DNA of 64,000 nt from Planctomycetaceae bacterium (GTDB lineage Bacteria; Planctomycetota; Planctomycetia; Pirellulales; Pirellulaceae): NCBI GenBank assembly GCA_007121535.1, contig SKKK01000168.1, positions 16,956-80,955 of the forward strand. The letters are read 5' to 3'. The translations under genes and the position numbers were made by a program. Below are positions 46,908 through 63,300 of this stretch, piece after piece; within the stretch, counting starts at the first letter, position 1, and every line of letters starts with the position of its first letter. The notes beneath the pieces were generated by a model. That model saw only the letters and a list, made by a program, of their open reading frames with translations. It ran no database searches and had not been told where the DNA came from.

Positions 46908-48203
46908 ATGTGGCTTAAGATCTTTCAGCTTTCCGTGCGAAACCTGATGCTGAACAAGCTGCGCAGTCTCCTGACGATGCTGGGCACGATTCTGGGAGTC
47001 AGTTCGGTGATCGCCATGTTGGCGATCGGCGAGGGCTCGAAACGTCATGCGGTCGAGCAGATTCGACAGTTGGGCGCCACCAACGTGATCGTTCGTAGCG
47101 TCAAGCCGGGGCAAGACGATGCGGGCGATGCCTCGACGGGCAACTCGTCGCAATCGCAGACCAGTCGCGTGCTGGAATACGGTCTGCGATACGACGACCT
47201 CGAACGCCTGCAAGCGACCTTGCCCACCGTTCGTCGGGCCGTGCCCACGATCCTGCTGCGCAAAGACGCTCAACATGGCAGGTACCGAGTCAGTAACGCC
47301 CGCGTGCTTGGCACAACTCCGGAATACCAGCTTGTCAAGAACGTGCCGTTGCGTCGTGGACGGTTCCTGGTCGATCTGGACATGGATACGATGGCAAATG
47401 TCGCTGTGCTGGGCGCCGGCGCCGCACAACGGCTGTTCAGCTTCGAAGATCCGCTGAACAAGACCGTACTGCTTGGATCGGGCGCCTACCGCGTGGTCGG
47501 CATTCTGGATACGCAGGACAGCGGCTCGGCCCGCCCCGGCGCCATCGGGGGCGCGGATTTCAACAACGACATCTACGTGCCGCTGACCGCTGCTCGCAGC
47601 CGCTTCGGCGAACTGCAAACGATCCTTCGCGCCGGCAGCCGTGAAATCGAACGGGTGCAATTGAGTGAGATCACGCTGACCGTTCACGACGAAACGCTGG
47701 TCAGCCAGACGGCGGCGATGGCTGGTGCGATCCTCCGTCGCACCCACCCGACCGGCGACGATTACGAGATCCATGTCCCGCTGGAACTGCTGCAGCAGGC
47801 CGAACGAGAGAAGCGGATCTGGAATCTGGTCCTGGGCTCGATCGCGGGCATCTCGCTGCTGGTCGGCGGGATCGGCATCATGAATATCATGCTGGCGACC
47901 GTTTCGGAACGGACGCGGGAGATCGGGATTCGCCGAGCTTTGGGAGCGACCCGCACTCACATCGTGGCACAATTCCTGGTGGAAAGCACCGTGCTTTCGG
48001 CAACCGGCGGTTTGTTGGGCATCTTTCTGGGCATCGCGATCCCGATCGCGGTGACTTCGATGAGCGAGATCGAGACGGCGATCAGTGTGCTGGCGATCAT
48101 GGTGGCCTTCCTGACTTCGGTGGGCATCGGCATGATCTTTGGCGTCTATCCAGCTCGGCGAGCCGCATTGATGGACCCCATCGAAGCCCTCCGTCACGAA
48201 TGA
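46908..48203 (+). CDS. MacB-like ABC transporter permease (MacB_PCD + FtsX)
   Basis: LMLNKLRSLLTMLGTILGVSSVIAMLAIGEG...GGIGIMNIMLATVSERTREIGIRRALGAT. No ATPase domain is present in this ORF. Confidence 0.9.
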   Translation: MWLKIFQLSVRNLMLNKLRSLLTMLGTILGVSSVIAMLAIGEGSKRHAVEQIRQLGATNVIVRSVKPGQDDAGDASTGNSSQSQTSRVLEYGLRYDDLERLQATLPTVRRAVPTILLRKDAQHGRYRVSNARVLGTTPEYQLVKNVPLRRGRFLVDLDMDTMANVAVLGAGAAQRLFSFEDPLNKTVLLGSGAYRVVGILDTQDSGSARPGAIGGADFNNDIYVPLTAARSRFGELQTILRAGSREIERVQLSEITLTVHDETLVSQTAAMAGAILRRTHPTGDDYEIHVPLELLQQAEREKRIWNLVLGSIAGISLLVGGIGIMNIMLATVSERTREIGIRRALGATRTHIVAQFLVESTVLSATGGLLGIFLGIAIPIAVTSMSEIETAISVLAIMVAFLTSVGIGMIFGVYPARRAALMDPIEALRHE

Positions 48204-48227
48204 CAACGCCGTGAAGGGGTTTCGTAG

Positions 48228-48318
48228 CCGAATTCTCCAGAATTCGGTTATTCATGAACCTTCCGAATTCTGGCGAATTCAGCTACCCTCTGTTCCGAAT
48301 TCTGGCGAATTCGGCTAC
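48228..48318. repeat. BIME/REP-like cluster (units 48228-48247, 48263-48286, 48295-48318)
   Basis: Same GAATTC palindromes as 3645-3760. The leader GCCGTGAAGGGGTTTCGTAGCCGAATTCTCCAGAATTCGG also parallels 3680-3720. Confidence 0.85.
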
Positions 48319-48506
48319 GCTCTGCTTGCCTGCGTCTTTTCTTTCTTGCGAGTCGCCTTACCAGAGACGTTATGGGGGCATGTCATACTAAGCTTTCCGA
48401 GCCCACTTGCCAGCCGTTGCCGATTGGACCACAATTCACGCGGTCGATCACCGTTTTCAATTCATGACGCTTGGCGTCTTGGTTTCGGCTCGCTTGGGGT
48501 GCATTC

Positions 48507-49448
48507 ATGGAAATTCAGACGGACCGCCTGCACAACGAAGATTGTATCGAGGGCATGAGCAAACTGCCGCCGGGCTGCATCGATCTGGCGTTTGCCGATC
48601 CGCCGTTCAACATCGGCTACAAGTACGACGTGTACCGCGACGATCTGGACGATAACGATTACCTCGATTCGTGCGACCGCTGGATCGGCCAGGTCGTGCG
48701 ATTGTTGAAGGACGATGGCACCTTTTGGCTGGCCATCGGCGACGAATACGCGGCCGAGTTGAAGGTGCTGATGCAGCGTCAGCACCGGCTGGTCTGCCGC
48801 AGTTGGGTGATTTGGTACTATACGTTCGGCGTCCACTGCAAGCAGAAGTTTGCACGCTCGCACGCTCATCTGTTCCAAATGGTCAAAGACCCGAAGCGGT
48901 ACACCTTTGAAGTCGATCAGATTCGCGTACCTTCAGCCCGTCAGTTGGTCTACCAAGACGCGCGTGCCGATCCACGCGGGCGGCTGCCGGACGACACATG
49001 GATTCTACGACCGCAGGATCTGCGCGAAGGTTTCTCCGGCGACGAAGACACATGGTACTTCCCTCGAGTCGCCGGGACGTTCCACGAACGCGAGGGATTT
49101 CACGGATGCCAAATGCCCGAGCAGTTGCTGGGACGAATCCTGCGAGCGTGCAGCCGTGAGGGCGAAATCGTGTTGGACCCCTTCGCGGGTAGTGGGACCA
49201 CGTTGGCCGTCGCCAAGAAACTGGGCCGCCGTTACTTGGGATTCGAGCTGTCGGCCGACTATGCTCAGAAGATCGAGCGTCGTTTGTCCAGAATCTGCGT
49301 CGGCGATCGATTGGAGGGCGCCGAGGAACCTTTGGTCAGCGCTCCCAGCACGACCGATGGCAAGCGTTGGGCATCGACCGCGTCCACAAATACACCGAAC
49401 AACAAGCGTGCTACCGGATCCCGCCAGAAACTCTTACCGGGGTTATGA
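48507..49448 (+). CDS. site-specific DNA methyltransferase (beta-class N6A/N4C, DPPF motif)
   Basis: [30 protein letters not shown] (motif IV) lies upstream of [26 protein letters not shown] (motif I). No restriction endonuclease gene is adjacent. Confidence 0.9.
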
Positions 49449-50266
49449 TCATGAAATTCGCCATTTGCAACGAAACCTTTCGGGACTGGCCTTTCGACAA
49501 AGCGTTCGCGTTCGCTCGTCAACTGGGCTACACGGGCATCGAATTTGCGCCCTTCACCATGAACAAAGATGCGCGGAAGATCACCGCCCAGCAACGTCAG
49601 GACGTCCGGCGACAGGCGGAAGCGGCGGATCTGCAGGTCGTCGGACTGCATTGGCTGCTGGCCTTTACCGAAGGCTTCTACTTGACCAGTCCCGATCGGG
49701 CGGTCCGAGCCAATACGACCGAATACCTGGCCGATTTGGCTCGATTGTGCCGCGACCTGGGCGGTCGGGTGATGGTCCTGGGTTCGCCCCAGCAGCGCAA
49801 TCTGCTGCCCGGCGTGACCCTGGACCAAGCGATGGACTATGCCGCCGCTGTCCTGCAGGGCGCCATGCCCGCAATGGAGGAATGCGGTGTGGTGCTGGCC
49901 GTCGAACCGCTCAGCCCGGAAGAGGGCGATTTTCTGCTGACGGCCGAGTTGGGCGTCGAACTGATGCACAAAGTCGCTTCGCCCCATTGCCGCCTGCACC
50001 TGGACGTGAAGGCCATGTCCAGCGAATCGCGCCCGATCCCCGACATCATCCGCCAAAACGCTTCGTACCTGGAACACGTGCATGCCAACGACGCCAATCG
50101 TCGAGGTCCCGGGATGGGAGAGATCGATTTTGTGCCCATCCTGGCCGCGCTGCGCGAGATCGATTATCAAGGTTGGGTCTCGGTCGAGGTCTTCGACTAT
50201 GAACCCGGCGTCGAGGCGTTGGCCGGGGACAGTATCCGTTACTTGCAGCAATGCTTGGCTTCATGA
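49445..50266 (+). CDS. sugar phosphate isomerase/epimerase (xylose-isomerase-like TIM barrel)
   Basis: [35 protein letters not shown]...LAVEPL...[11 protein letters not shown] 49445 overlaps the MTase stop codon (ATGA). Alternative ATG at 49451. Confidence 0.85.
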
Positions 50267-50282
50267 ACCGGAGGACCGCACG

Positions 50283-50792
50283 ATGAGCGAGGAATCCCTT
50301 CGTCGGCAATTGTTGGATTCGTTCAAGAATCGAGCCCTTTTGTATGCGCTGATCTACGAGGAACTCAGCCAGGAGGTCGGCGAGCAGCGTGCGGAAGCGA
50401 TCATGAAGCGAGCCATCCTGCGTCGCGGTCAGCAGATCGGCCAGCAGTTTCGCGATTACGCACCGGACGACTTCGCGGGACTCTGCGAGGCCTTCGTTGC
50501 AAACGTCCCCGACGATGGGCGCTTGTTCCAACCCAACGTCATCCGTTGCGATTCGCAGGGTCTGGACATCGAGCTGCAGCAATGCCCCTTGAAGACCGCC
50601 TGGGAGGAATTGGGATTGGACGAATCGCGACGAGAAACCCTTTGTCGCATCGCCGGGGAAATCGACAAAGGCACCTTCGAAGCCGCCGGCTTCGCCTTCA
50701 CCGTCGACACCTGGAAACCCGGCCGCTCCGCCTGCTGCCACCTCCACATCCGCCCCGGTCGCTCCGACGCCGCATCCACTAGTTCCACTTGA
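50283..50792 (+). CDS. L-2-amino-thiazoline-4-carboxylic acid hydrolase-like protein
   Basis: MSEESLRRQLLDSFKNRALLYALIYEEL...CPLKTAWEELGL...LCRIAGEIDKG...ACCHLHI resembles the ATC_hydrolase family as I remember it. Confidence 0.55.
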   Translation: MSEESLRRQLLDSFKNRALLYALIYEELSQEVGEQRAEAIMKRAILRRGQQIGQQFRDYAPDDFAGLCEAFVANVPDDGRLFQPNVIRCDSQGLDIELQQCPLKTAWEELGLDESRRETLCRIAGEIDKGTFEAAGFAFTVDTWKPGRSACCHLHIRPGRSDAASTSST

Positions 50793-51060
50793 TCCGTTTT
50801 CCACGCGGCCAACTCGTTGAGCCCATTTCGCGATGGAGGATCGGTTAAGCAGGAAGCTCAGCATCTCGCTCAAGAACTCTGCGGAGTCCCGAGCGGTTGA
50901 GCTATGCGATGCTGAACTGCTATTTGCTTCTCAGAAGAACGCCCCACTGCCCTTTGGCTCGGCTCTTGCAGTGTCATACGGTGACGGCAACAATAGTGAA
51001 TGCTCCTAAATCGGCCCCATTGATCGGCTCCGGTCGTGCTGACTGGCGTGAGGATTCATC

Positions 51061-54000
51061 ATGGCTCGAAAACGACAACTTTTCGCAACATCCGTCAACA
51101 ATCCGGAGAGCCGAGATAATCTGCCCGAGGGTATTACGCTCGAGCAGCAGTTGCACGCCCTCGGAAGCCCCCAAGAATTTACCAGTCTCGCGTGGTCGCC
51201 GGATGGCCAGTCGCTGGTTGCAGGAACGGTGACCGGAGTTGTGACGTTGTGGACCGCGTCTCGGGGAAAGATTCAACACGAATCCACTTGGTTGACGAAC
51301 ATCGAACGCATCTACGCCTTGGCTTGGGCGTCGGATAGCAACCGATTCGTTGTTGGTGGTCACAGCAACCGCTTCATCTTGATCGACAGGCATGAAACGC
51401 AACCCAGGACCGGACTTCGTTCTCCACTTGGTCGCTTGATATTCGGATTAGCTTGGTCCCCGGACGGTTCGACAATCGCTGTCGGGAGTGCCGCCGAGAC
51501 CATTTCCATTGTCAATGTCCAGACGGAACAGACCCAATGGACATTGAACGGACATGGTGACGATATCGGTCGTGTGGCTTGGAACCCCGACGGGCGATTG
51601 CTGGCGTCGGCATCTGTAGACTGTACCGCTGCGATTTGGGACGTATCTTCCGGTGGGATGCTGCGCCGATTGTCTGGGCACTCTGAACCGCTTTCGTGTG
51701 TCGCTTGGCTACATCACGATCAGCACGCTGTTACGGCAGCGTTTGATCACTCGTTGCGCATATGGAACGCCGAATCGGGCGAGCAAATCGCCATGCTGGA
51801 GGGCCATGCGGACCGGGTTTGGTGTGTGTCCGTCATGTCCTGTGGCAGCTTGGCGGCGTCGTATGGCGAGGACGCGATTCGGTTCTGGCGTTTCGACAGA
51901 TTTGAACCGGTCGAAGTGATTCACCAAGAAGGGCTTTCTGGCAGATTGCAATCACTCGAATTCCATCCCACCGAGCCCATCCTTGCCGCCATCACAGACG
52001 GCGGTCAATGCATCTCGCTCTGGCGTTTGGATGTTCCTCGCTTGTTGCATTCACCCAAGCCGCCTGATACGATCCGGTACGCGAACGCCAAGGTGGTCGT
52101 GGTCGGCGATACGGGCGTGGGCAAATCCGGGCTGGCGATCCGTTTGAAGGACGACCGGTTCGAGCAGACCGAGTCGACGCACGCTCGCCGTGCGACGGTC
52201 CTGGACGCTGAGATGGTGGACGATCCGGTTGCTCCCGGGCGGCAGATCGCGCACGAGACACTGCTCTGGGACCTGGCCGGGCAACCCGGTTACCGTTTAG
52301 TCCACCAATTGTCGCTGGACGATGCGGTGGTGGCGCTGGTGTTGTTCGACGCCCGCAGCGAGACCGATCCGTTCAGCGGCGCTGCGTACTGGTCAAAGGC
52401 GCTCGGCCAGGCGCGATCCAACGTACCGATCAAGAAACTGTTGGTGGCCGCGCGCGTCGACCGCGGCGGCGTGGGCGTCAGCCGCGAGCGGATCGAGCGG
52501 TTCGTGCAGGAACACGGCTTCGACGGGTTCTACCGGACCAGCGCTTTGACCGGCGAAGGGCGCGAGGAGCTGCTGAACGCGATCCGCCGCGCGATCCCGT
52601 GGGAACGGTTGCCGATCGTCTCGTCGAACCGGTTGCTTTCCGATCTTCGAATCTTCCTCCGCCAGCGCCGTGCCGACCCCAACCAGCCGCTGATGGTCAC
52701 CGCGGGCGAACTGTGGCAGGAGGTCCGGCATTCGAACGTGCTGGACAACGTACCCGATGCCGACGGCAAGCGGACGTTCGACCAGTTCGCCGCCAGCCTG
52801 CAGCGGCTGCACGAAGCGGATGTGATCGAATTGCTGAGCTACCAGAGCACCGACCGGAAACCAACGCCGGATATCGACGTACTGCTTGAGCCTACATTCG
52901 TAGATGCCTACGCTTCGGCGGTTATCCTGGCAGCGCGGGACGAACCGGATGGACTGGGACATCTACCGGAGTCCGACATCTTGAAAGGCCGCTTCCCGCT
53001 GGATCCGGCCGAGCGTCTGACCGATGGCGACGCGGAACGCAAGGTGCTGGTAATGGTAATCGAGCGGTTCTTGGATCGGGAGATCGCGTTCCGCGAGCGC
53101 ATCGACGGCGTGGATTATTTGGTGTTTCCGTCCCAATACACCCGCGAAGCGCCGTTTCCGGGCAGCAGCTCGTATGGCATCCGATACGATTTTGCCGGCC
53201 CGCTGCTTAGCATCTTCGCCACGCTGGCCGTCCGCTTGGCTCACCATTCGGGATTCGGCAGCCGACAGTTCTATCGCAACGCGGCTGCCTACGAACCTGC
53301 GGACGGCGGGCGGTGTGCGATCTTGTTCGAGGACCTCGACGAGGGCCGTGGCCGGTTGTCGGTCTTCTTCGAAGACGGGGTGACCATCGAATCGCAGGGC
53401 GTCTTTCTGGAGTACGTCTACGAACACTTGCTGCGCAAGGCCCTGCCAGGCAGCATCGTTCGCCGACGGGCGTATCATTGTCGTAAGTGCGGTTATCTGT
53501 TCGACGATCGGGTGGTCGAACGCCGGTTGGAACGAGGCGATGATCAGATTGTTTGTTCCAATTGCGATACGCGATCGCCGCTGTACGATCTGCTGCTGGC
53601 GCCCAGCGACCGTGATCGCGAAGCGATTGCTCGGATCGATGCCGAGGCGCGCTCCGGGATGCACCGTCAGTTGGCCGTCACGGCGATCCAGGGTAAGAAA
53701 CGCAGTGGAGCGTTCGATTTGTACTTAGCGTATCCGCCTACGGACCGCGACGCGGCGTTATGGTTGGCGGAATGGCTGCAAGCGTTGGGGCTGCGTCCCT
53801 GGCTGGACGTCTGGCAAGCGGTACCGGGTCAGACTTGGGAACAGACGCTTGCATCATCGACGGACCGGATACGAGCGGTTTTGGTGGCTGCCGGTTCAAG
53901 CGAACGGCAGGTTTGGCACGATACGTCACAAGCGAAGGTGCTGGCTGCGTTCGCCGAACGGCAAGCCCGCTTCTCGATGGCGCGGCTGCCGCGGGCCGAC

Positions 54001-55836
54001 CCCCCGGAATCGGTGCGCGAGACAGCGCTCCAAGAGGCTCCGGGAGCCGACGTTGCCCCGTCGATCAAATTCCTCCGAAACCGAACTTGGGTCGATCTGC
54101 GCTGGCCGGATGCGGAGGATGTGGAACCGTTCGAAGAATGCCTGCGGCAATTTCTTGGGCGACCTTCGCACGAGTTTGGAGCATCCGAACGGACCCGGGA
54201 AGTGCTGGCATGGAAGCTGGAAGACGAGCGGCGACGGCGACAGTGGGTCGATGCACACCGCGATGCTGCCACCCTGATTCGCTTGGTCCCCGATTCGAAA
54301 CCGGAGACATTCGGCAGCGATGGTCCGGAATCGTTGCGTCTTCAGATTGCGGAAGCGATCGGGATGCCGTCTGCATTCGTCTCGGTTTTTAACCAACAGA
54401 TCTCACCGCCGCGAGTCACGCTCCGGTTCGCGGTCCCCGAGGACGCTGAGCGGCTGCTCGCGATGGTCCAAATCGACGATCCGTTCCTGATCGAAGTGCT
54501 GAACCGCTGGGCGGTCGATCGCACGAGGTTCCACAGCCACAACCAGAATGCACTGGCGCCCCTGAAAACGCACTTAGCAGGGAAGTCGCTCACGTCAACG
54601 CGTGCAGTAGGCCGGATTGAACCCCGGGAAAGGCCGCCGGAGCAGCAACCAGCCGTTCAGATCCTGCGCGTTCGGATGAAAAACTTCCGTTGCTTTGAGG
54701 AACTCTCGTTGGATTTGGACCGTCCCTCGACACTCGGCGGCTTCTGGACTTGCTTGGTCGGTATTAACGGCTCGGGAAAATCGTCCATCTTGCAAGCGAT
54801 CTGTATCGGACTGCTCAGTCAGCCGACGGTCCACGAGTTGGGCCACGGCTCGCTCGAGCGGCTGCGCCGATTGCATGACGGTCGCCGCCAGGATCTGGAA
54901 GTGACGATCCACTGTCGCGACATGGACGGCAACGAATTCGACGAATGGATCACCATCAAAGCGGACGGGGTTCGGTCGGGCCGGCGGGCGCGGCGTCTGC
55001 TTAAACCGGCAGCGATGGACCGATCGCTGCTGGTCGTCTCCTACGGGGCGACGCGGAATCTGTCCGAAGCGACGGATACACGGCACGCGGACAAGAGCGA
55101 CGAAGCACAACGGCAGATGACGCTGTTCGATCCGCTGGCAAGTGTCGCCAGCGCGGAATCTCTGTTGACCGCAAGAAACCAGGATACGGGGTTTCTGCGA
55201 TTGTTTGCGCAATTGGTGAGCGAGGTTTTCGGCGAGCATTTGCGGATTGAGCCGCGAGACGGCGGCGTGGCGTTCCGTACCGAAGGAGAGATACTGGACG
55301 CCGTCGAGTTGCCGGACGGATTCCGATCGAGTGTAGCGTGGATGGCCGATCTGTGCCAGGCATGGTGCCTGCGGTTCCCCGAGCGGGCGAGCCAAGCCAG
55401 TCCGGCCGACATCGAAGCGGTCGTCTTGATCGACGAAATCGATCTGCACCTGCATATGTCGCTGCAAAGAGAACTGGTGCCGGCGTTGCGAAAAGTGCTG
55501 CCGCGGGTCCAATGGATCGTCTCGACGCACTCGCCAATGATTCTGACCAGTTTCGACCGTCACGAGATCATGGCCTTGGATCGAAGCGAGCCCAACGGCC
55601 TGCGGGATTTGGACCGGCAGATTCTCGGCTGGACGACCGACGAGGTGATCCACTGGCTGATGGAAACTCCGGCGACCAGTCTGGTCATGGAGGAGAAGTT
55701 GCGCGAGACTGCGCGATCGGGCGGTGATCAATCGGATTTGGCGGTCCTCCTGGAAACATCCGACCAGGTGGATGAAAAGGACGCTCGTCGCCGGGTGGCT
55801 GCCCTGAAATCGCGTCTGGAGAAATACAAGCCATGA
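51061..55836 (+). CDS. 1591-aa multidomain protein: WD40 repeats - Roc-type GTPase/COR-like - zinc ribbon - TIR-like - PtuA-like ABC/AAA_15-21 ATPase
   Basis: - WD40 blades (LAWSPDG.., AWNPDGRLLASASVDCTAAIWD, DHSLRIWN), ~51170-52040.
- GTPase G1 GDTGVGKS (52105-52128), G3 DLAGQ (52270-52284), G5 TSAL.
- CRKCG...CSNCD ribbon (53479-53570).
- FDLYLAYPPTDRDAALWLAEWLQALGLRPWLDVW (from 53713).
- NFRCFEEL + GINGSGKS Walker A (54760-54783), VVLIDEID Walker B (55420-55443), STHSP. Confidence 0.9.
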   Translation: MARKRQLFATSVNNPESRDNLPEGITLEQQLHALGSPQEFTSLAWSPDGQSLVAGTVTGVVTLWTASRGKIQHESTWLTNIERIYALAWASDSNRFVVGGHSNRFILIDRHETQPRTGLRSPLGRLIFGLAWSPDGSTIAVGSAAETISIVNVQTEQTQWTLNGHGDDIGRVAWNPDGRLLASASVDCTAAIWDVSSGGMLRRLSGHSEPLSCVAWLHHDQHAVTAAFDHSLRIWNAESGEQIAMLEGHADRVWCVSVMSCGSLAASYGEDAIRFWRFDRFEPVEVIHQEGLSGRLQSLEFHPTEPILAAITDGGQCISLWRLDVPRLLHSPKPPDTIRYANAKVVVVGDTGVGKSGLAIRLKDDRFEQTESTHARRATVLDAEMVDDPVAPGRQIAHETLLWDLAGQPGYRLVHQLSLDDAVVALVLFDARSETDPFSGAAYWSKALGQARSNVPIKKLLVAARVDRGGVGVSRERIERFVQEHGFDGFYRTSALTGEGREELLNAIRRAIPWERLPIVSSNRLLSDLRIFLRQRRADPNQPLMVTAGELWQEVRHSNVLDNVPDADGKRTFDQFAASLQRLHEADVIELLSYQSTDRKPTPDIDVLLEPTFVDAYASAVILAARDEPDGLGHLPESDILKGRFPLDPAERLTDGDAERKVLVMVIERFLDREIAFRERIDGVDYLVFPSQYTREAPFPGSSSYGIRYDFAGPLLSIFATLAVRLAHHSGFGSRQFYRNAAAYEPADGGRCAILFEDLDEGRGRLSVFFEDGVTIESQGVFLEYVYEHLLRKALPGSIVRRRAYHCRKCGYLFDDRVVERRLERGDDQIVCSNCDTRSPLYDLLLAPSDRDREAIARIDAEARSGMHRQLAVTAIQGKKRSGAFDLYLAYPPTDRDAALWLAEWLQALGLRPWLDVWQAVPGQTWEQTLASSTDRIRAVLVAAGSSERQVWHDTSQAKVLAAFAERQARFSMARLPRADPPESVRETALQEAPGADVAPSIKFLRNRTWVDLRWPDAEDVEPFEECLRQFLGRPSHEFGASERTREVLAWKLEDERRRRQWVDAHRDAATLIRLVPDSKPETFGSDGPESLRLQIAEAIGMPSAFVSVFNQQISPPRVTLRFAVPEDAERLLAMVQIDDPFLIEVLNRWAVDRTRFHSHNQNALAPLKTHLAGKSLTSTRAVGRIEPRERPPEQQPAVQILRVRMKNFRCFEELSLDLDRPSTLGGFWTCLVGINGSGKSSILQAICIGLLSQPTVHELGHGSLERLRRLHDGRRQDLEVTIHCRDMDGNEFDEWITIKADGVRSGRRARRLLKPAAMDRSLLVVSYGATRNLSEATDTRHADKSDEAQRQMTLFDPLASVASAESLLTARNQDTGFLRLFAQLVSEVFGEHLRIEPRDGGVAFRTEGEILDAVELPDGFRSSVAWMADLCQAWCLRFPERASQASPADIEAVVLIDEIDLHLHMSLQRELVPALRKVLPRVQWIVSTHSPMILTSFDRHEIMALDRSEPNGLRDLDRQILGWTTDEVIHWLMETPATSLVMEEKLRETARSGGDQSDLAVLLETSDQVDEKDARRRVAALKSRLEKYKP

Positions 55837-56840
55837 GGACGTTGGTGCCGACGAGCCTGTTATCGCCGACTCTGACCAAAGAGGGTGTGGGCGGCCGACT
55901 GGCCGCAAGACACGTCAATGACCGCCACGAAGATTCCACCGCGCGACTCACCTTTCCCAGCCATTGGAACTTACCGGACGTGCGCGGCCTGCTGTACGCG
56001 CGGCATTGGCGCGTCTGCGCGTTCTGCGGTTGCGATTTGCCTCGCAATGACCGAGGCGACGTCGAACATTTTCGGCCCAAAGGAAAGGTAGAAGAAGATG
56101 CCGATCACGGCGGATACTGGTGGTTGGCCTACGATCTGAATAACTACCTGCTCAGTTGTTCGCTGTGCAATCGCGTTCGCAAGCGAGACCGTTTTCCGTT
56201 GCGGCCCGGCGCTCGAGTCCGGACCACATATTCGCAGCGCCGGCGTCTGCGGACAGAAGGACGATTACTGCTGCACCCTGAGTGGGATCCGGTAGAGGAT
56301 TGGCTGCGGGTCCGATGGGAAGAATCGTTATGTTTGATCACGCCTCAGCAGCACCTGTCCCCAGCCGCGCGAAAACGTGTGCAGTTGGTTATCGACTTCT
56401 TCAGTCTGAATCACGATGTGCGGCTGGTGCGTGAGCGAAATCGACTTCGTGACGACGTACTGGACGCCTTGGATCAGGAACGCGGCGAGGATGCAAAGTA
56501 CATGGCACTCCGATTTCGACCGCACAGTCTGGTAGCCAAACAGATCTTGGCGAATCGTGCGCTGCAATACCTTCCGACCATCGAGGAAGAACTGCGGTGG
56601 TTGCTGCACGTCGCCTTGAAGGAATTGCTCGTTGCAGTCGAATTGCAGGACCGGTCGGGCTTGACGGACAGTCCTCATGAACGGCTGACGAAAGAACTAC
56701 TGTGGACTTTGGCAGCGTTGTGCTTGGAACCTTTGACGGGCAACCGCGCCGATGTCGAATCGCTGTTAGAGGATGCTGACATGACAGAAATCGTACGGCC
56801 TTTCATAGATGCTTTCGCACGTGCATATGAAAACCCATAG
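55833..56840 (+). CDS. PtuB/TIGR02646-like HNH endonuclease
   Basis: The ATG overlaps the upstream TGA (ATGA). CAFCGCDL..RGDVEHFRPKG...GYWWLAYDLNNYLLSCSLCNRVRKRDRFPL is the CxxC...(D/E)HFxPK...CxxCNxxK HNH pattern (core 56016-56200). Confidence 0.85.
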   Translation: MRTLVPTSLLSPTLTKEGVGGRLAARHVNDRHEDSTARLTFPSHWNLPDVRGLLYARHWRVCAFCGCDLPRNDRGDVEHFRPKGKVEEDADHGGYWWLAYDLNNYLLSCSLCNRVRKRDRFPLRPGARVRTTYSQRRRLRTEGRLLLHPEWDPVEDWLRVRWEESLCLITPQQHLSPAARKRVQLVIDFFSLNHDVRLVRERNRLRDDVLDALDQERGEDAKYMALRFRPHSLVAKQILANRALQYLPTIEEELRWLLHVALKELLVAVELQDRSGLTDSPHERLTKELLWTLAALCLEPLTGNRADVESLLEDADMTEIVRPFIDAFARAYENP

Positions 56841-56940
56841 GCCAAGGGCGGCAGATTCCGCTGCATCGAAAACGCCGTCCAACCGTTTAACCGGCAGCCG
56901 AAGGCGCCCGCTGAAACGATCAACCAACTACAAAGCGGCT

Positions 56941-57001
56941 TTTCCGAAAACGACTCCCGGCCCCTTCCGAAAAACGCAACACCAATTCATTTGCCGATCG
57001 G
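56941..57001 (+). repeat. truncated copy (right arm + tail only) of the ~125-nt hairpin element
   Basis: TTTCCGAAAACGACTCCCGGCCCC + TTCCGAAAAACGCAACACCAATTCATTTGCCGATCGG. The left arm is absent. Confidence 0.7.
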
Positions 57002-57015
57002 AAGGCGTCGGGGCG

Positions 57016-57633
57016 ATGCTTAGGCAAGGGATCGAGACGATGATTGAAATCAAATACACTGGCGACGCACTTTGGGAAAGGATTGAACGAGCCGTGGAAA
57101 AAGTGAAGGACCGCCTGCGTCGTGTAACTCGCGCGTTGAATTCCGCCAACATTCCGTACGCGGTCATTGGGGGTAACGCCGTACAGCACTGGGTTTCCCA
57201 AGTCGACGAATCGGTCGTCCGAAACACGCGCGACGTGGACATTATAATGAATGAATCGGATTTGGAGCGAGCCATCCGGGCTTTGGCGGTCGAGGGATTC
57301 ATCTATCGACGAACTGCCGGAGTCACCATGTTTCTGGATGGCGCGGACGCCAAAGCGCGTGACGCAGTCCACGTCGTATTCGCGGGAAAGAAAGTCCGCG
57401 AAGAATACCCCGAACCGGTTCCAGAAATCGACAGGTACGAACTCATGGAAGACGTCCGTACGTTACCGTTCGAGCGCTTGGTCGCGATGAAGTTGACCTC
57501 CTTTCGAGACAAGGACCGTGTTCATCTCCGCGATTTGATATCCATCGGCCTGATCGACCGGAGCTGGCTCAATCGCCTGAGTCCAGAACTGCGAATACGA
57601 TTGGACAAACTGCTGAACGACCCCGATGGCTAA
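57016..57633 (+). CDS. nucleotidyltransferase-fold protein (AbiEii/DUF6036-like), putative
   Basis: IPYAVIGGNAVQHWV....RNTRDVDIIM (GG..[n]..D.D NTase pattern) and C-terminal KLTSFRDKDRVHLRDL. Alternative start ATG at 57040. Confidence 0.55.
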   Translation: MLRQGIETMIEIKYTGDALWERIERAVEKVKDRLRRVTRALNSANIPYAVIGGNAVQHWVSQVDESVVRNTRDVDIIMNESDLERAIRALAVEGFIYRRTAGVTMFLDGADAKARDAVHVVFAGKKVREEYPEPVPEIDRYELMEDVRTLPFERLVAMKLTSFRDKDRVHLRDLISIGLIDRSWLNRLSPELRIRLDKLLNDPDG

Positions 57634-57857
57634 TGGCCGCGTCTGGTCCTTCAATGCTATGTCTCACAGTTTAGAACGAAATCCCGTCACCGGATTGGGA
57701 ACTCGATTGGCATCAATATCTGATTCTGTTGAAGTGGAGTCCCGCAAGATCAGCGTGGCTGAATCGGAACGAGCGTGTTCAGTTTGTCGCATTCTGGCCT
57801 GATTTCGAAGTTTCTCGCACGCCCATTTCCATTCCGTGACCGGTGGTAGCCTGGCAT

Positions 57858-59906
57858 TCAGTCGATGGCTGCTTGCAAGTCTGGCAGATCGTAGACGGTC
57901 AGCGCTCCCTGGACCGTGTGGACCAGTTGATCGGAAGCCAATGGTTTCTCGACAACCTGCTCGAAGGACGGCAATGCTCCGTGGATCTCCACCGCACCGA
58001 AGAAACTGCGTTCCAGGGCGGCAGCGTGCAGAGCCGGAATGGCCGTTTGGGCACCGTGGGCGACCAGATGCACGCCGCCATCGCCGGGGACCAGGCTGCG
58101 AGCCACCCGAGCGGTGACCAGGATATCCTCTGCCCGCATCGCCACGTAGGAGCGGCCCAGCATGTACGCCACCGCGACGTTAGCGCCGTCGTGACCGTTG
58201 CGCGCACCGTACCACTGGTTCTGCTCGCTTCGCGTCTCGCCCAACCCCCGCAGATCGACGGCCAGCACCGCTTGGCCCGCCGCCACTCGCTGCTTGATAC
58301 CGGCAATCGCCGCGTCCGCCGACTTGCCCTGCTCGTCCAGCCACAACACGACTTGTTCCGCACCGTCGTCCGGAACGAACGCCAGCGCCGGCAGGACAAT
58401 TCCCGGTTCCGGCTCGATTACCCATTGATCGACTCGAAAGCCGTCGCGCTGGAACTGGCCCACGTGCCGCGGTTCGGGCACTTTCAACTGCTCCAGCCGC
58501 CGGATGCCCGTGATACGTCGCACTTCGTCCCACATCGCTTGCCCTCGGTCGCGCCAGGCCGCCTGGCGCTGCTGCCGCAGACGCACCATCAGGTCCCGGT
58601 TGATCGCATACACGTCCCGCGCGCCCTCGATATCCATCACCTGCCCCGTCGGTGTCACCTGGATCTCGGCCTCTGTCAAGACCTCCAGATCCTCCGGCTC
58701 ACGCACCTCTCGCTCCTGGCCGACCAGCCAGCGCAGCATCCAGGCGACGGTCGCTTCGCGCAGCCGGGTATGCCAACCGTGGGGGCCGACGGTTTCCACC
58801 AGGTCGATTTTTTCCGCGGCATTCAACCGCTGGAAGACAACTTGGGCTGTTTCGACCGAACTTCGCGTCCCATCGATCGGGAAGAAATCTTCGGTCGCCG
58901 CACAGACCAGCACGGGCATCGGCGCCCGCATGACCAGGTATCCCCAGTGATCCAAGCCCACACCCAACTGGCCCGCTACATTCTGCTCGGCGTCACCCGG
59001 CACGTCGCCCCGCTCCCGGATCCGGCCCAGCCAATGCTGGAAATCCGTAATGTAGCACGCCGGCGCTGCCGCCTTTAGACGGTCCTCGATGCCCATCACC
59101 AGCGACGTTTGAGTCCCGCCGCCACTGTTGCCGGTCATCCCCAGCCGGTTCGCGTCGATGTCCGCTCGCGACTCCAGATAGTCCAGGCAGCGCATGGCGT
59201 CGTGGATCATGAACTGAGCCGTATTGTTACCCAGCAGCATCGATCCGACTCCCAACGCATTGTGAGCCTGCGTGCCCCACACCACGGTGCGCCCCTGCTC
59301 GTCGCGCAACTGAATCCGCTCGCCCTGGTCGATCGGATCGAAGATCAAAGCGGCGATCCCATTCAAAGCCAGCAGCGCGGCGCCTTGTTGATATCTTGGA
59401 CTCGCCTTGCCATTCTGGGCGTGTCCACAGGCCAGCAGCACCGCAGGATACGGCGGCTTATAAGGTTCCGAGTCGGGCAGGAACAGGGCCGCCGTCACAT
59501 AATGTCCCGGCTGAGCTTCCAACAGCACCTTCTCGACCTGATACGCGTCCCGCTGGAGCGTGCCCGTCACTCGGGCATTCAACGGGGTGTCCATCGGCGG
59601 CAAGCCGCCGATTGCTTCGACGAACCAAGTTCGCATCGTCTGCTGCCACTGCCGGATCTGCTCGGGATCGGTGCGGTCCAGCATCGCTTGTCGAGCCTGC
59701 TGCATCTGCTGGTTGGCCTGGTCCAACAGGTAGCGGACCATCATCTGCTCCGCAGGCGCCTCGCCTGCCTTCCCGTCGAGCACATCCCACGCGGGCGGAT
59801 CAGCCCCCGCCGTTTGAACGTCCCCAACGCACCACAGACTGACCAACAATACGGCAAGAAGCCCCCCGCCGCAAGATCCCCGCAACGACCCAAAGCATTT
59901 CGTCAT
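57858..59906 (-). CDS. secreted alpha/beta hydrolase (GxSxGG nucleophile elbow)
   Basis: Signal peptide MTKCFGSLRGSCGGGLLAVLLVSLWCV.., LGMTGNSGGGTQTS. 682 aa. Confidence 0.8.
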   Translation of the reverse strand: MTKCFGSLRGSCGGGLLAVLLVSLWCVGDVQTAGADPPAWDVLDGKAGEAPAEQMMVRYLLDQANQQMQQARQAMLDRTDPEQIRQWQQTMRTWFVEAIGGLPPMDTPLNARVTGTLQRDAYQVEKVLLEAQPGHYVTAALFLPDSEPYKPPYPAVLLACGHAQNGKASPRYQQGAALLALNGIAALIFDPIDQGERIQLRDEQGRTVVWGTQAHNALGVGSMLLGNNTAQFMIHDAMRCLDYLESRADIDANRLGMTGNSGGGTQTSLVMGIEDRLKAAAPACYITDFQHWLGRIRERGDVPGDAEQNVAGQLGVGLDHWGYLVMRAPMPVLVCAATEDFFPIDGTRSSVETAQVVFQRLNAAEKIDLVETVGPHGWHTRLREATVAWMLRWLVGQEREVREPEDLEVLTEAEIQVTPTGQVMDIEGARDVYAINRDLMVRLRQQRQAAWRDRGQAMWDEVRRITGIRRLEQLKVPEPRHVGQFQRDGFRVDQWVIEPEPGIVLPALAFVPDDGAEQVVLWLDEQGKSADAAIAGIKQRVAAGQAVLAVDLRGLGETRSEQNQWYGARNGHDGANVAVAYMLGRSYVAMRAEDILVTARVARSLVPGDGGVHLVAHGAQTAIPALHAAALERSFFGAVEIHGALPSFEQVVEKPLASDQLVHTVQGALTVYDLPDLQAAID

Positions 59907-60343
59907 CTGTTTTTCTCCTGGTAAGCATCACGACCGCCACTTGACCCCGCCCAATATACCACAAACCATTCCAGGCCGCACTCTTCCGAAAAGGTGCCGC
60001 CCACCAATCTTGGCCGCAGTTCGTCTGCCGGTTCGCCGCACGCGATGTCGGCGGATGCACAGCGCAACGGCAAGCATCATCGTTCGGGGCAACGTCTGGT
60101 CCGTGAATGTTTTTCCGGCACGGCCGGGTAGATGGCTCGCAAGGCCTCGACAGATCGCATGAGTTTGTTGACGTTCCGTTCCGAATCTCGCGTGGCCTCA
60201 GTTTCGATGGCGGCTTTTGCCGGCATTTGCCGTAGCGCGTGAATTCGGACCGAAACAGCATTGTTTTTCCGGTAGGGCCGAGCCACAATAGGAAACGGTA
60301 CGGGCATCATGGCCAAGGCTTTGGTTGCTTGAAGGAGGTTCGC

Positions 60344-63300
60344 ATGCGGGTTCTAGCCATCTCCTGCTGGGTATTGAGCGTGTTGTGGTGCGCGATCGGT
60401 TGGTCCGATGGCGGAACGACGCCGTCCGGTTCGAACATCGAGGCGTCCACTTGTCGCACCCGAGAGTTGATCGACCTTGATTACGTCGAACAGTTCTTGC
60501 TGTATCAGATCCGGACCTTGCGAGATCTTCCGGCGCGAGCCGGGCCCGTTTCGACGTCTGCCGATGCGATGGGTGCGGTGGATGGGATCAAGGATGGTAA
60601 GTATGGATTCCATACCGGCCGGGAACCTCATCCCTGGTGGCAGGTGGACTTGGAGGACGCCGGTTTGGATGGCATCGAACGAGTGGTGATCTACAACCGC
60701 TTGGATTACCCGCCCGGCGTCGCCAATGCTACCCGGTTGGCGATTTTGACTTCGAACGACGGCCACACGTGGACGGAGCGATACCGGCACGACGGCAGTC
60801 CCATCGGTGGGGCGATCGAAAACGATCCTTTGGTCGTGCGCTTTGCACCGCAGCAGGTGTCGGCGCGATGGGTGCGAATTCAACTGATCAGCGAAGAAGC
60901 CATCTGGCACCACCTGGATCAAGTGGAGGTTTACGGTACCGCCGATCCGCAAAAGAACCTGGCCGCCGGTCGTCCTGCAGACCAAAGCAGTATCAGCCCC
61001 TGGTCGGTGAATCGCGTGGTGGCACTGGACTTGCCGCCCGAACAGCGGCGCGCTGCGGGTCAGTGGCTGTCCGCGATGGATGCACGCGATGGATTGAATC
61101 CAAGACCCGTTTCCGGATTCATCTCCGGTCCGCTGCTCAAGCGATACGGAGCGATATGCGCGGATCGAGGCCGCGCTCAAGCCGAACGTCTGGCACGGCA
61201 GGGCGTGTCGGTCGGCGACGCGGTCGCGGAACTCGACTATGCGGCGGGGCGCCTAAAGGCTCTGCCGGACGATGCACCGACCGAACGGTTGTTGGACGCC
61301 TATCTGGAACTGAGATGGGCGGTGCGCCAGATCGTTTGGCGGCACCCGGCATGGGATGTCGAAGCGTTGCTTTTCTACACGCGTCGCGATGGTTTGATCT
61401 TCCCGGATGTCTCCAGCATCGCTTTGCCGTGGGTGGGATCGCCCGGCGGTGACTTGCAGGTGCTGACCGTAGATCGGACAGGTCAAACCTTTGGCTCAGT
61501 CCGTCCGTTGTTGAAAGACCGTCTGGCTCCCGGCCACGTCCGGGGATTCGATTTGCACTTCGATGCCCGTCGCCTGGTGTTCGCCTGGACGCACAGCGAC
61601 AAGGATTTTTCCCGGCATCCCGTTCGGCCGGGCCACGAAACCTTCCAGCAGATGGGCTCGGGGTGGATCTACGAACTGTGCCTGGACAGCGACACCATCC
61701 GGCAAATCACCAGTGGCCAACGGGTGCATGATGCCGAGCCCGCCTACCTGGCCGACGAACGAATCGTTTTCATGTCCAACCGCAGCCGATCCAGCATGCA
61801 GTGCAACCAGGGGCAACACGAAATCCACCCCAGTCTGTACGCTTGTGACCCGGACGGTAGTCGCCTGGAACGCTTGGACAACAATCTGACGGGCGACTAC
61901 AACCCGCGTCTGCTGAACGATGGCCGGATCGGCTATATGCGATGGGAGTACAACGAGCGCTCGTTCAACAATCCGCATGCCTTCTGGGTCATGCGACCGG
62001 ACGGCACCTATCCCGAACCGATCTACGGCCAGCATCTCAGCAACCCGATCATGCACACCAATGCTCGGAACATCGCCAATAGCCGCAAATTCATGTTGGT
62101 CGTTTCGCAGCACTACAACTTTCAACGCGGCGTCCTCGGCGTGCTGGATCCCTCGCTGGGTATCCGGAACCCCGATGCCGTCCAGCCCCTCTTGCCCTGG
62201 ACCTCATGGCAAGGGATGAGCGGCATGCCGACCACCAACGCCGAACGGGGTTGGTTCGCCGACCCTTGGCCGCTGGCCGAAGATCTGGCGATCTGTTCGT
62301 ATGATTACTCGCCCGACCAGTACCAAGTGAACGGCTTCGGCTTGTATTTGGTCGATGGTAGCGGCAACCAAGAGTTGATCTACCGCGACCCGGACTTCTC
62401 TTCCCATCACCCGGTGCCGTTCCGGCCACGAACTCGACCACCTATTCTTCCGCGAAGCTGTGACTCGCCGCCCGCCCAATCGCCGCCGACGTCACCCATC
62501 GGTTACCACAACCAGGCAGGGGAAGGACTGCTGTTGCTGACCGATGTCCTGTCAGGATTGGAAAACGCCGTCTTCGAAACGCCCCAGGACGCTCCCCGTT
62601 ATCTGCGAGTCAGTGAATCGATGGTGCTGCCCTATTTCGATTGCGTGGGCCAGACCGTGTACCGGCATGACGGATGTGACAGCGAGAACTGGACCCCCAA
62701 GCGGATCGTCGGCGACGTGCTGCTGCAACCGGACGGCAGCGCGCATTTTTCGGTCCCCGCCGATCGGTCATTGTACTTCCAACTGCTCGACGGCCACGGG
62801 CGCGAAATCCGGCGTATGCGTTCCTGGGTCAGTTTGAAGTCTGGCGAGGTGCGTTCCTGTACCGGGTGTCATCAGGAACAGATGACTGCGCCGTCGGCAC
62901 ATACGGGAGTATCGTTAGCCGCCAGCCTGCCCGCTGTGACGCCCGTACCGCGAGTCTCGTGGGACGATCGACCGGTCAGCTTTCACCGCGACATTCGCCC
63001 GATCCTGGATCACGCCTGTGCGAGTTGCCATACCGGGCTGAAGCCCGCCGGCCAACTTGATGTCACCGATCCTCAGGCCGCTCAGCGGCTGCAGTCCCTG
63101 GCCGCTTTTTCGCCGGCGATGGATGGAGCTTGGGTCAGCCAAGTTCATCAGTTCGGTTCGCATCGAGCCCCCCTTTTCCAAATCCTGACAGACGAAGCGC
63201 ACGGGGAAACGTTGAACCTGAGCGAGCAACAATGGATCGACTTGCGAGCTTGGGTCGATCTGAACGCCCCCATCCACGACCGTTGCCGCATCGTGTGTTC

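Follow-up and report, generated by a model that had tools for sequence, protein, structure and literature searches.

The two adjacent genes at 51061–56840 of the window, which is the whole 64,000-nucleotide stretch of a Planctomycetaceae contig (SKKK01000168.1) that was analysed, probably form a two-gene anti-phage system of the Septu type, whose ATPase subunit is fused to a ROCO (LRRK2-like) receptor. A ROCO-gated Septu-type abortive-infection or nuclease system is predicted as the best explanation of the locus, and the fusion seems to connect a receptor to a known defence effector in a manner not described before. The first gene is a single ATG-initiated open reading frame of 1591 codons with the sequence GAGGA 6 nt 5' of its start. 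Its TGA stop shares 4 nt (ATGA) with the ATG of a partner gene of 335 codons at the junction CCATGAGG. The open reading frame listing bears out the preliminary description on both the uninterrupted frame and the overlap, and all the motifs quoted there (GINGSGKS, VVLIDEID, STHSP, CAFC, DVEHFRPKG and CSLCN) were located. The features are as follows.

51061–55836, + strand: megaprotein gene, WD40 – Roc – COR – Zn ribbon – TIR (degenerate) – TRADD-N-like – PtuA, 1591 aa
51166–52026, + strand: WD40 beta-propeller, presumed sensor (aa ~36–322; Pfam WD40 and Beta-prop_THOC3, E 3.5e-62)
52069–52596, + strand: Roc-type small GTPase (aa ~337–512; Pfam Roc 57.9 bits, Ras 58.3 bits)
52615–53442, + strand: COR, with helical COR-A and alpha/beta COR-B (aa ~519–794; AF2 model and Foldseek)
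53458–53580, + strand: four-Cys zinc ribbon (Cys807, 810, 832 and 835; invariant in 120/120 relatives)
53713–54135, + strand: TIR domain, degenerate (aa ~885–1025; TIR_2, 47.9 bits)
54271–54540, + strand: probable TRADD-N-like alpha/beta adaptor (aa ~1071–1160; Pfam matches of relatives, AF2 and Foldseek)
54646–55836, + strand: PtuA-type ABC ATPase (aa 1196–1591, the C-terminal 396 aa; PADLOC PtuA, E 2.8e-44)
54760–54783, + strand: Walker A GINGSGKS (aa 1234–1241; motif match)
55309–55329, + strand: signature LPDGFRS (motif match)
55420–55443, + strand: Walker B VVLIDEID (aa 1454–1461; motif match)
55522–55536, + strand: H-loop STHSP (aa 1488–1492; motif match)
55833–56840, + strand: PtuB-type HNH nuclease gene, 335 aa (PADLOC PtuB, E 6.5e-34)

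The PtuA–PtuB module

The ATPase domain is covered by Pfam AAA_15 and AAA_21 over aa 1200–1495, and its best PDB sequence match is the Septu PtuA 8ee4 (E 4e-18). This match and the PADLOC models uphold the original proposal of a PtuA ATPase paired with a PtuB-like HNH nuclease. The PtuA motif residues are invariant across 67 relatives, as are C62, C65, D76, E78, H79, N104, C109, C112 and N113 of PtuB across five aligned partners; the predicted catalytic His79 is encoded by nt 56067–56069, where the His codon had first been placed. The NCBIfam PtuA (105.9 vs 500), NCBIfam PtuB (39.1 vs 150) and TIGR02646 (30.3 vs 52.15) scores fall below the curated cut-offs.

Septu, with which the name of Doron (2018) and the structures 8ee4 and 8ee7 are associated, reportedly consists of a PtuA ABC ATPase and a PtuB HNH nuclease. 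PtuA forms an inflammasome-like hexamer that holds PtuB, which depends on it. The locus has the same two enzymatic modules in the same order and in overlapping genes, with Walker A, Walker B, the H-loop, the HNH His and both CxxC pairs intact. The LPDGF signature carries a Phe at the position of the Gln in the retron PtuA LSDGQ, so ATP turnover by the fused PtuA may be poor. Stand-alone Septu PtuA, which has a Leu at this position and is devoid of ATPase activity, likewise lacks the Gln (PMC12819146). Unlike Septu, which comprises two stand-alone proteins, the locus has some 1195 residues, comprising receptor, switch and adaptor, fused before PtuA. Its PtuA lies in a distant clade, with the phmmer alignment to 8ee4 limited to the C-terminal third, and its PtuB of 335 aa has a longer helical tail than the PtuB chains of the PDB matches (215–266 aa). 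The earlier statement that canonical PtuA stands alone holds for the Septu systems studied but not for the clade of this PtuA, in which 98 of 122 representatives (~80%) carry N-terminal extensions of at least 100 aa. The heads fused to this clade include NACHT/NB-ARC with TPR or HEAT repeats, canonical LRR-Roc-COR, TIR, Metallophos, PNPase and kinase domains.

Fusion to PtuA is accompanied by PtuB without exception in the intact or frameshift-split loci that were read (at least eight). Among the ROCO-TIR-PtuA loci in these states, PtuB overlaps or closely trails the fused gene in six of six (the window, L001, L002, L003, L009 and L102), and it also lies downstream in the three readable loci of the PtuA clade with other heads (L104, L105 and L106), which bears out the proposed coupling of the giant gene to the HNH gene. 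In the close relative L008, a decayed copy, 243 aa have been deleted and the PtuB found 76 nt downstream is broken. An apparent three-gene form with separate ROCO-TIR, PtuA and PtuB (P0014/L102) proved to be a fused gene split by a frameshift in a long-read assembly: by tblastn the frame changes between aa 993 and 1094 of the query, with a tail that resembles junk and an upstream frame that stays open.

A precedent for a sensor recruiting this pair is found in the type I-A retrons (Ec78/Eco7 and Ec83), where a separate sensor recruits PtuAB via an N-terminal extension of PtuA, as is the case in retron Ec78 (PMC12819146). In contrast, this locus has its sensor joined covalently to PtuA in the form of a ROCO protein, its NCBIfam scores for PtuA and PtuB lie far under the equivalog cut-offs, and it is devoid of reverse transcriptase and ncRNA: Rfam gave no match, retron or other, in 48000–58000, and none of the ten flanking open reading frames scanned had a reverse transcriptase domain.

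The WD40 propeller and the Roc–COR switch

The N-terminal propeller has seven blades by profile and by repeat spacing (~43 aa), with repeats of the 'AW-PDG' type at aa 43, 87, 130, 172, 214, 256 and 299, in agreement with the roughly seven blades first noticed. It is followed by the Ras-like Roc GTPase that had been recognised in the same reading, which scores well above the Pfam Roc gathering score of 27. Its G motifs are intact (G1 GDTGVGKS, G3 WDLAGQ, G4 ARVD and G5 TSA) and are kept in 115–120 of 120 relatives, G1, G3 and G5 being near-invariant and G4 reading ARxD. Few parts of the family evolve as fast as the WD40 domain, and Roc is the slowest, with median identities of 31% for WD40, 29% for TIR and 57% for Roc.

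Pfam COR-A and COR-B give no match in aa 520–880, even at E 10, but structure comparison finds the Roc-COR fold, so that the COR-like region first suspected directly after Roc is confirmed by predicted structure alone. The AF2 model of this part (pLDDT 88, pTM 0.90) retrieves with Foldseek LRRK1 (8e05), LRRK2 (8fo9), the RocCOR of C. tepidum (3dpu; E 6e-15 over 529 columns), 6hlu and the M. barkeri protein (4wnr). The top matches have the Roc-COR-A-COR-B fold (E 6e-17 to 3e-11), and the Roc-COR alignments extend over 529–602 columns vs ~180 columns for GTPase-only matches. The modelled fold is shared with LRRK1, LRRK2, DAPK1 and the C. tepidum and M. barkeri Roco proteins. By contrast with these ROCO proteins, the GTPase is nearer by sequence to Rab29 and Rab32, its best PDB sequence matches, COR goes without a Pfam match, and G4 is ARxD vs NKxD; the proposed output is a nuclease complex, not the kinase of eukaryotic ROCO. 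The switch is Roc-COR and not a STAND ATPase; no STAND family (NACHT/NB-ARC) appears among the 25 Pfam families listed for the whole protein, nor in the scans of aa 520–1200. The logic of repeat sensor, NTPase switch and effector is shared with Avs/bNACHT, and sister PtuA fusions use NACHT/NB-ARC with TPR or HEAT repeats, whereas this protein has a Ras-like GTPase with COR as its switch, an N-terminal sensor and a C-terminal effector.

The N-terminal part of ~1000 residues belongs to a widespread, catalogued family, to which PtuA is a rare C-terminal add-on. The WD40-Roc-COR-Zn ribbon-TIR family has more than 5000 matches and at least 379 loci in species-representative genomes, and the architecture 'BetaPropeller+AP-GTPase+TIR' was already listed among predicted counter-invader proteins by Kaur, Burroughs, Iyer and Aravind (eLife 2021; PMC8195603). 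These authors predicted, in assignments that are themselves predictions, a counter-invader role for AP-GTPase(Roc)-COR proteins with C-terminal effectors (PMC8195603). Their proteins likewise run from repeat sensor through Roc-COR to a C-terminal effector, commonly TIR, but their text describes LRR sensors, and neither an ABC/PtuA module nor an HNH partner gene is listed there ('COR+ABC', 'COR+AAA', 'COR+SMC' and 'TIR+ABC' occur 0 times). The claim that the architecture is undescribed stands for the whole, as no description of WD40-Roc-COR-TIR-PtuA with an HNH partner was found in the literature searched, and falls for its N-terminal WD40-Roc-COR-TIR part. What follows the TIR and TRADD-N-like domains differs among relatives (PtuA, an adenylate/guanylate cyclase or an unknown tail), and PtuA is one of several interchangeable modules in this C-terminal 'effector slot'. 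No PtuA or PtuB occurs within 8 kb of any of 79 unfused ROCO-TIR loci.

It could be argued that PtuA/PtuB itself does the sensing, and that WD40-Roc-COR-TIR is a downstream or parallel regulator or scaffold, setting a GTP-dependent threshold or localisation. Stand-alone Septu reportedly becomes sensitised through a phage tail fibre protein and is under the control of the ATP level (PMC12819146), and some heads of the PtuA clade (Metallophos, PNPase, kinase and TIR) are enzymes that resemble effectors rather than sensors. This arrangement is nonetheless unlikely, since WD40 and Roc-COR are present in thousands of proteins without PtuA and are therefore a self-sufficient sensor-switch unit, and the variability of WD40 is what would be expected of a ligand-binding surface.

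The TIR domain and the adaptor

The zinc ribbon that had been read from two CxxC pairs matches Pfam weakly, and its four Cys are strictly conserved in the relatives. The next domain is a genuine TIR fold, as first suggested: TIR_2 scores above its gathering score of 28, and the AF2 model displays the alternating strand-helix pattern. The catalytic Glu of its W-x-x-x-E motif is replaced (W952-H-D-T-S956, with Ser956 at nt 53926–53928). In the alignment of relatives, 108 of 120 family members have Glu at column 956, whereas the closest PtuA-fused relatives have Ala (P0002–P0005 and P0008) or Arg (P0014). The TIR NADases studied so far need this Glu, e.g. E642 of SARM1.

These residues bear on the proposal, made at the outset, of a dual effector in which TIR would degrade NAD+ or make a signal while PtuA/PtuB cuts nucleic acid in parallel. 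The fold and the Glu kept by most of the family speak for it, as do P0052 and P0068, two distant and probably independent PtuA fusions that retain the Glu; the TIR of L009 may also retain one, in which case the loss is not uniform in the clade. Nevertheless, a dual effector is unlikely in this protein, and somewhat more so than sensing by PtuA/PtuB, because its TIR has Ser in place of the catalytic Glu of those 108 relatives and nothing acidic at +3 or +4, and its nearest fused relatives have Ala or Arg. Judged from its residues, the TIR is more likely a scaffold here.

Between TIR and PtuA sits a domain that was overlooked in the first reading. The linker at aa 1040–1195 is probably a TRADD-N-like adaptor, weakly so for this copy itself: Pfam TRADD-like_N (PF20694) is matched by 10 of 24 family copies (best E 2.6e-5) and not by the query copy. 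Among the ferredoxin-like folds that Foldseek retrieves with its AF2 model (pLDDT 89), TRADD-N 1f3v has rank 6 (E 0.038, prob 0.84). The linker profile has no significant PDB sequence match, and its HMM found nothing in 149 representatives of other PtuA fusions. Its position after TIR matches the TIR+TRADD-N architectures of Kaur et al.

Genomic setting and predicted mode of action

The identical 1591-aa protein is found on at least nine contigs from several samples, and homologs number in the thousands, so that a chance origin of the reading frame or the architecture is not an issue. Strain copies differ by 0–2 nt, too few for dN/dS. The neighbours of the locus in the window are ordinary metabolic and transport genes, and its GC content resembles that of the rest of the window. 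The locus does not lie in an obvious variable defence island, a setting that the first reading had proposed to look for in homologs: exact look-ups of the flanking proteins returned only contigs with the system, with no empty site among the strain variants. Promoter and terminator scans at the locus gave matches no more numerous than in shuffled sequence.

A non-immune ROCO signalling role (cell-cycle, developmental or DNA-repair), in which the ABC-ATPase/HNH pair would work on the DNA of the cell itself, would agree with a housekeeping-like context that is stable among strains, with the concentration of the ROCO-TIR family in filamentous or developmentally complex lineages and with cyclase-bearing sister forms that suggest second-messenger signalling, and yet it is the least probable reading, as PtuA/PtuB pairs are known from defence only (Septu and retron I-A), fused homologs lie in unrelated contexts beside a PemK toxin or a DDE transposase, L008 is decaying in a manner typical of dispensable accessory genes, and TIR, TRADD-N and NACHT partners are conflict-system vocabulary (PMC8195603).

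The proposed Septu-type system would act in four steps, with signalling predicted to begin at the propeller. An invader-derived ligand would be bound by the seven-bladed WD40 domain, and this binding would shift the Roc-COR GTPase switch to another nucleotide or dimerisation state. The zinc ribbon, the Glu-less TIR as a putative oligomerisation scaffold and the TRADD-N-like adaptor would relay the signal, so that the C-terminal PtuA ABC-ATPase domains are rearranged. PtuA would hold the PtuB HNH nuclease, as in Septu and retron Ec78, and PtuB would be licensed to cleave nucleic acid, nicking DNA and/or depleting tRNA, by which the infected cell or the phage may be stopped. Counting against this model are the housekeeping-like neighbourhood and the presence of the locus on all strain-level contigs, together with the NCBIfam and TIGR02646 scores under cut-off, the weak TRADD-N of the query, the LPDGF signature and the possible Glu of L009.

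In a wider sense, it may tentatively be proposed that prokaryotic ROCO proteins are GTP-gated immune receptors, of which this would be the first with an identifiable and assayable output, that PtuA/PtuB is a plug-in executioner, and that the dead TIR and TRADD-N-like domains are adaptors in the style of death folds. If so, PtuA/PtuB would have been captured by at least four unrelated sensor types (retron RT-msDNA, ROCO GTPases, STAND NTPases, and TIR or other enzyme heads), and 'dead' TIR and TRADD-N-like domains would assemble as in animal signalosomes. Far beyond retrons, PtuAB appears to serve as an effector cassette that can be reused; members of its nearest clade normally carry receptor-like or enzymatic heads, and this widens what 'Septu' matches in the output of defence finders may mean. 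In the lineage that gained PtuAB, the loss of the TIR Glu amounts to a natural experiment, both on the replacement of effectors and on TIR domains that work as scaffolds. In structural work on LRRK2, bacterial Roco proteins are in wide use as models, and to our knowledge they have no known biological function. A Roco protein physically linked to a nuclease pair whose biochemical read-out is known would make Roco function directly testable.

The gene pair and its surroundings

The megaprotein and its PtuB partner are encoded by consecutive genes, listed here with the other sites discussed in this section.

51061..55836, + strand: megaprotein ORF, ATG start, uninterrupted, 1591 aa
55833..56840, + strand: PtuB-type ORF, 335 aa
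51271-51273 and 51838-51840: strain-variant codons 71 and 260, WD40 propeller
57016-57633, + strand: DUF6036/NTP_transf_5 nucleotidyltransferase gene, 176 nt 3' of PtuB on every strain contig

The two ORFs form an ATGA junction, in which the ATG of the second overlaps the TGA of the first, and a GAGGA sequence lies 6 nt 5' of the megaprotein ATG. Every motif quoted in the preliminary description was found in its place, and the HNH His is encoded, as it had proposed, at nt 56067-56069. At least nine contigs, drawn from several metagenomes and MAGs, encode the 1591-aa protein unchanged, and strain copies differ by 0-2 nt across the whole 5.8-kb operon, so the pair of genes is real and intact. 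Strain copies of the operon (loci L090 and L091) vary only in the WD40 propeller, at two non-synonymous sites, a number (n=2) too small for a selection test.

The locus has unremarkable GC content. On its upstream side are MacB/FtsX genes and those for an N6/N4 DNA methyltransferase, a xylose-isomerase-like protein and an ATC-hydrolase-like protein; on its downstream side are genes for a DUF6036-type nucleotidyltransferase, an S9-type hydrolase and an HZS-alpha/discoidin protein. No Rfam family matched in 48000-58000, and no reverse transcriptase domain occurs in the ten flanking ORFs scanned. The methyltransferase gene (48471-49448, + strand; PF01555, E 7e-48) overlaps the next gene, encoding the xylose-isomerase-like TIM barrel, and no restriction enzyme was found beside it among the neighbours scanned. 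The large discoidin protein (60239-63724, + strand) combines F5/8 type C and hydrazine-synthase-alpha middle domains (PF18582, E 4e-22), and a 760-aa ORF (41840-44122, - strand) that public assemblies annotate as a gene matches no Pfam family at E < 1e-3. A small NTP_transf_2/Pol-beta nucleotidyltransferase also directly follows PtuB in the unrelated NACHT-PtuA-PtuB locus L105 (4629-4949). As none follows PtuB in the related loci L001-L003, the nucleotidyltransferase of the window may be a coincidence or an optional accessory. The contigs with the system are metagenomic, the nearest named relatives are Planctomycetota, and the name of one JGI sample (SL_1KL_011_SED) suggests lake sediment. Every strain-level contig sharing the flanking genes carries the system, so the comparison showed no island behaviour.

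Proposed receptor, switch and output slot of the megaprotein

Domains of the megaprotein (aa) and their basis
~36-322: WD40 propeller, seven blades (Pfam; repeat spacing)
344-512: small GTPase (Pfam; Ras 58.3 bits, Roc 57.9 bits)
~519-794: COR (structure only)
807-835: four-Cys zinc ribbon (Cys invariant in 120/120 relatives)
~885-1025: TIR (TIR_2 47.9 bits, gathering threshold 28)
~1071-1160: probable TRADD-N-like linker (family alignment, Pfam on relatives, model, Foldseek)
1196-1591: PtuA ABC ATPase (Pfam, PADLOC, PDB sequence match)

The GTPase motifs G1 (GDTGVGKS), G3 (WDLAGQ) and G5 (TSA) are kept in 115-120 of the 120 relatives, and G4 reads ARxD instead of NKxD, with its Arg and Asp retained in 119. 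Because the nearest GTPases by sequence are Rab29/Rab32, and a Pfam scan of aa 520-880 gave no COR match, the Roc and COR-like assignments made earlier had to be tested by structure. With 64 homologs as input, AlphaFold2 modelled aa 330-1200 at pLDDT 88 and pTM 0.90. The top PDB structure match of this model is LRRK1 (8e05; E 6e-17, 602 columns); the model also matches 3dpu, the RocCOR tandem of C. tepidum (E 6e-15, 529 columns, TM 0.58 on target), and LRRK2 (8fo9 and others), 6hlu and M. barkeri Roco2 4wnr are among the other top matches. These LRRK/Roco alignments extend well past the ~180 columns that GTPase-only structures reach at most, so the megaprotein is a true ROCO protein. Both assignments were upheld, that of the GTPase by Pfam Roc/Ras and that of COR by its structural match to LRRK1, LRRK2 and 3dpu.

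In the TIR domain, 108 of 120 aligned relatives have a Glu four residues past a conserved Trp (W952), which is the W-x-x-x-E position of the catalytic residue of TIR domains (E642 in SARM1). The megaprotein has Ser956 in this column and no acidic residue at +3/+4; among its nearest PtuA-fused relatives the residue is Ala in P0002-P0005 and in the fragment P0008, and Arg in P0014. Glu is retained in the distant PtuA fusions P0052 and P0068, and the TIR of locus L009 has lost the Trp and may retain a Glu. The Ser in place of Glu, together with Ala or Arg in the closest fused relatives, makes a TIR NADase arm unlikely in the megaprotein, and constraint on TIR catalysis is relaxed in the lineage that gained PtuAB. 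Of the dual effector initially proposed, the TIR fold is supported (47.9 bits), whereas the catalytic TIR arm is unlikely.

The linker can be aligned to a domain of other long family members, and 10 of its 24 copies match Pfam TRADD-like_N (best E 2.6e-5), the megaprotein's own copy giving no match. Modelled separately (pLDDT 89), it has a beta-alpha-beta-beta-alpha core. The matches that Foldseek returned were ferredoxin-like and weak, TRADD-N 1f3v ranking sixth (E 0.038, prob 0.84). The linker is a probable TRADD-N-like adaptor, and its placement after TIR fits the TIR+TRADD-N listings of Kaur et al.

The WD40-Roc-COR-Zn ribbon-TIR core is kept in all of the top 120 matches (median identity to the megaprotein: Roc 57%, COR 40%, WD40 31%, TIR 29%), the majority of which terminate just past TIR, at ~995 aa. 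Beyond TIR and the linker, members bear PtuA, an adenylate/guanylate cyclase or an unknown ~170-aa tail. The cyclase-bearing form accounts for about ten clusters among the top 120: in P0026, P0027, P0031, P0035, P0036, P0056, P0058, P0064, P0065 and P0111 the cyclase follows the TRADD-N-like domain, which is the slot of PtuA (assigned by a Pfam scan of P0026, PF00211; by precomputed Pfam PF00211 for P0035, P0036 and P0058; and by tail-sequence similarity for the remainder). A scan of one genome per species gave at least 379 family loci, in Planctomycetota, filamentous cyanobacteria, actinomycetes, Chloroflexota, Acidobacteriota, Methanothrix and others. PtuA is rare in the family, occurring in one of 80 reference loci (L009).

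PtuA as a fused module and its PtuB partner

The PtuA domain matches Pfam AAA_15 and AAA_21 and the PADLOC PtuA models (E down to 2.8e-44), with Septu PtuA 8ee4 as its best PDB sequence match (E 4e-18), and the 335-aa protein matches the PADLOC PtuB models (E 6.5e-34), which bears out the pairing of a PtuA-type ATPase with a PtuB-like HNH nuclease in the preliminary description. The curated NCBIfam equivalogs for retron-type PtuA/PtuB, and TIGR02646, scored below their own cut-offs. The pattern CxxC...D-x-E-H...N...CxxCN is invariant among the five PtuB partners compared. The PtuA signature motif is LPDGF, with Phe where retron PtuA has Gln; stand-alone Septu PtuA has Leu at this position and is without ATPase activity (PMC12819146).

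A PtuB gene lies directly 3' of the fused gene in all six intact or frameshift-split ROCO-TIR-PtuA loci that were readable, namely the window, L001 (51% identity), L002 and L003 (30-31% identity, different linker), L009 and L102, the two genes overlapping by up to 4 nt or lying up to 13 nt apart. The co-occurrence of giant gene and HNH gene, for which a survey had been suggested, was thus found, and neither PtuA nor PtuB occurs within 8 kb of any of 79 unfused ROCO-TIR loci. Fused homologs sit in unrelated surroundings, one adjoining a PemK toxin and another a DDE transposase. L102 (8001-13727) was rejected as a three-gene version, being a fused gene split by a frameshift between TIR and PtuA; as the assembly is long-read, the frameshift may be a sequencing error. 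L008 (2075-6827, 86% identity) is decaying: it lacks the equivalent of aa 228-470 (243 aa, WD40 and Roc), and its broken PtuB, 76 nt downstream of the fused gene, is split over two frames.

An exhaustive PtuA-domain search returned 13,685 relatives, 153 of them at E < 1e-30. Of the 122 representatives whose PtuA N-terminus is complete, 98 have an N-terminal head of at least 100 aa, and 62 one of at least 250 aa, so the statement that canonical PtuA stands alone does not apply to this clade; the PtuA clade nearest the megaprotein is normally a C-terminal module. By Pfam, the heads found in this set of proteins (P0121-P0269) include TIR, calcineurin-like phosphoesterase (Metallophos), PNPase, kinase, SEFIR, NACHT/NB-ARC with TPR/HEAT arrays, and canonical LRR-Roc-COR-A-COR-B, and many have no Pfam match. 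An overlapping PtuB follows the fusion in all three readable loci of other types:

L104, 945-5752: LRR-Roc-COR-PtuA, PtuB overlapping by 13 nt
L105, 184-4580: NACHT-PtuA, PtuB overlapping by 4 nt
L106, 5001-8272: unknown head-PtuA, PtuB overlapping by 4 nt

The PtuA of the megaprotein shares 45-50% identity with that of non-ROCO fusions, against only 24-25% with the PtuA of the ROCO fusions P0052 and P0068, whose linker also differs, so that the ROCO-PtuA fusion probably arose more than once.

Relation to known systems and proposed mechanism

PADLOC-type tools would probably label this locus Septu, which is functionally the nearest system. Septu, however, consists of two stand-alone proteins, and here PtuA is fused; nor does the locus belong with the retron effector pair. 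The N-terminal 1000 residues belong among the AP-GTPase/ROCO predicted counter-invader proteins of Kaur et al., whose tables (PMC8195603) list BetaPropeller+AP-GTPase+TIR and AP-GTPase+COR+TIR+ACYC and no ABC/PtuA fusion. The architecture had been called undescribed, which is retained for sensor-fused PtuA, of which the literature search found no description, and withdrawn for these 1000 residues. The search likewise found no experimentally tested bacterial ROCO defence.

In published PtuAB studies, PtuA oligomers grip PtuB via a PtuA C-terminal extension, PtuB requires PtuA, extra sequence at the N-terminus of PtuA lets retron Ec78 control PtuAB, and the pair is reported to nick DNA and to deplete tRNA-Tyr (PMC12819146; PMC13096335, PMC12673091). 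For Ec78, the reported interface between PtuA and PtuB is a nine-helix bundle. The mechanism judged most likely combines this behaviour with ROCO logic and the variable output slot: the repeat sensor would act on a GTPase/COR dimer switch, and the switch on a C-terminal output, held in a slot after TIR and linker that carries differing modules across the family. The Phe of LPDGF, and a Septu PtuA devoid of ATPase activity, suggest that ATP binding, and not fast turnover, may matter. The sensor-fused Septu locus is real, coherent and testable, its support being computational throughout. No description was found of a 'sensor-fused Septu' class, which spans ROCO, NACHT and other heads.
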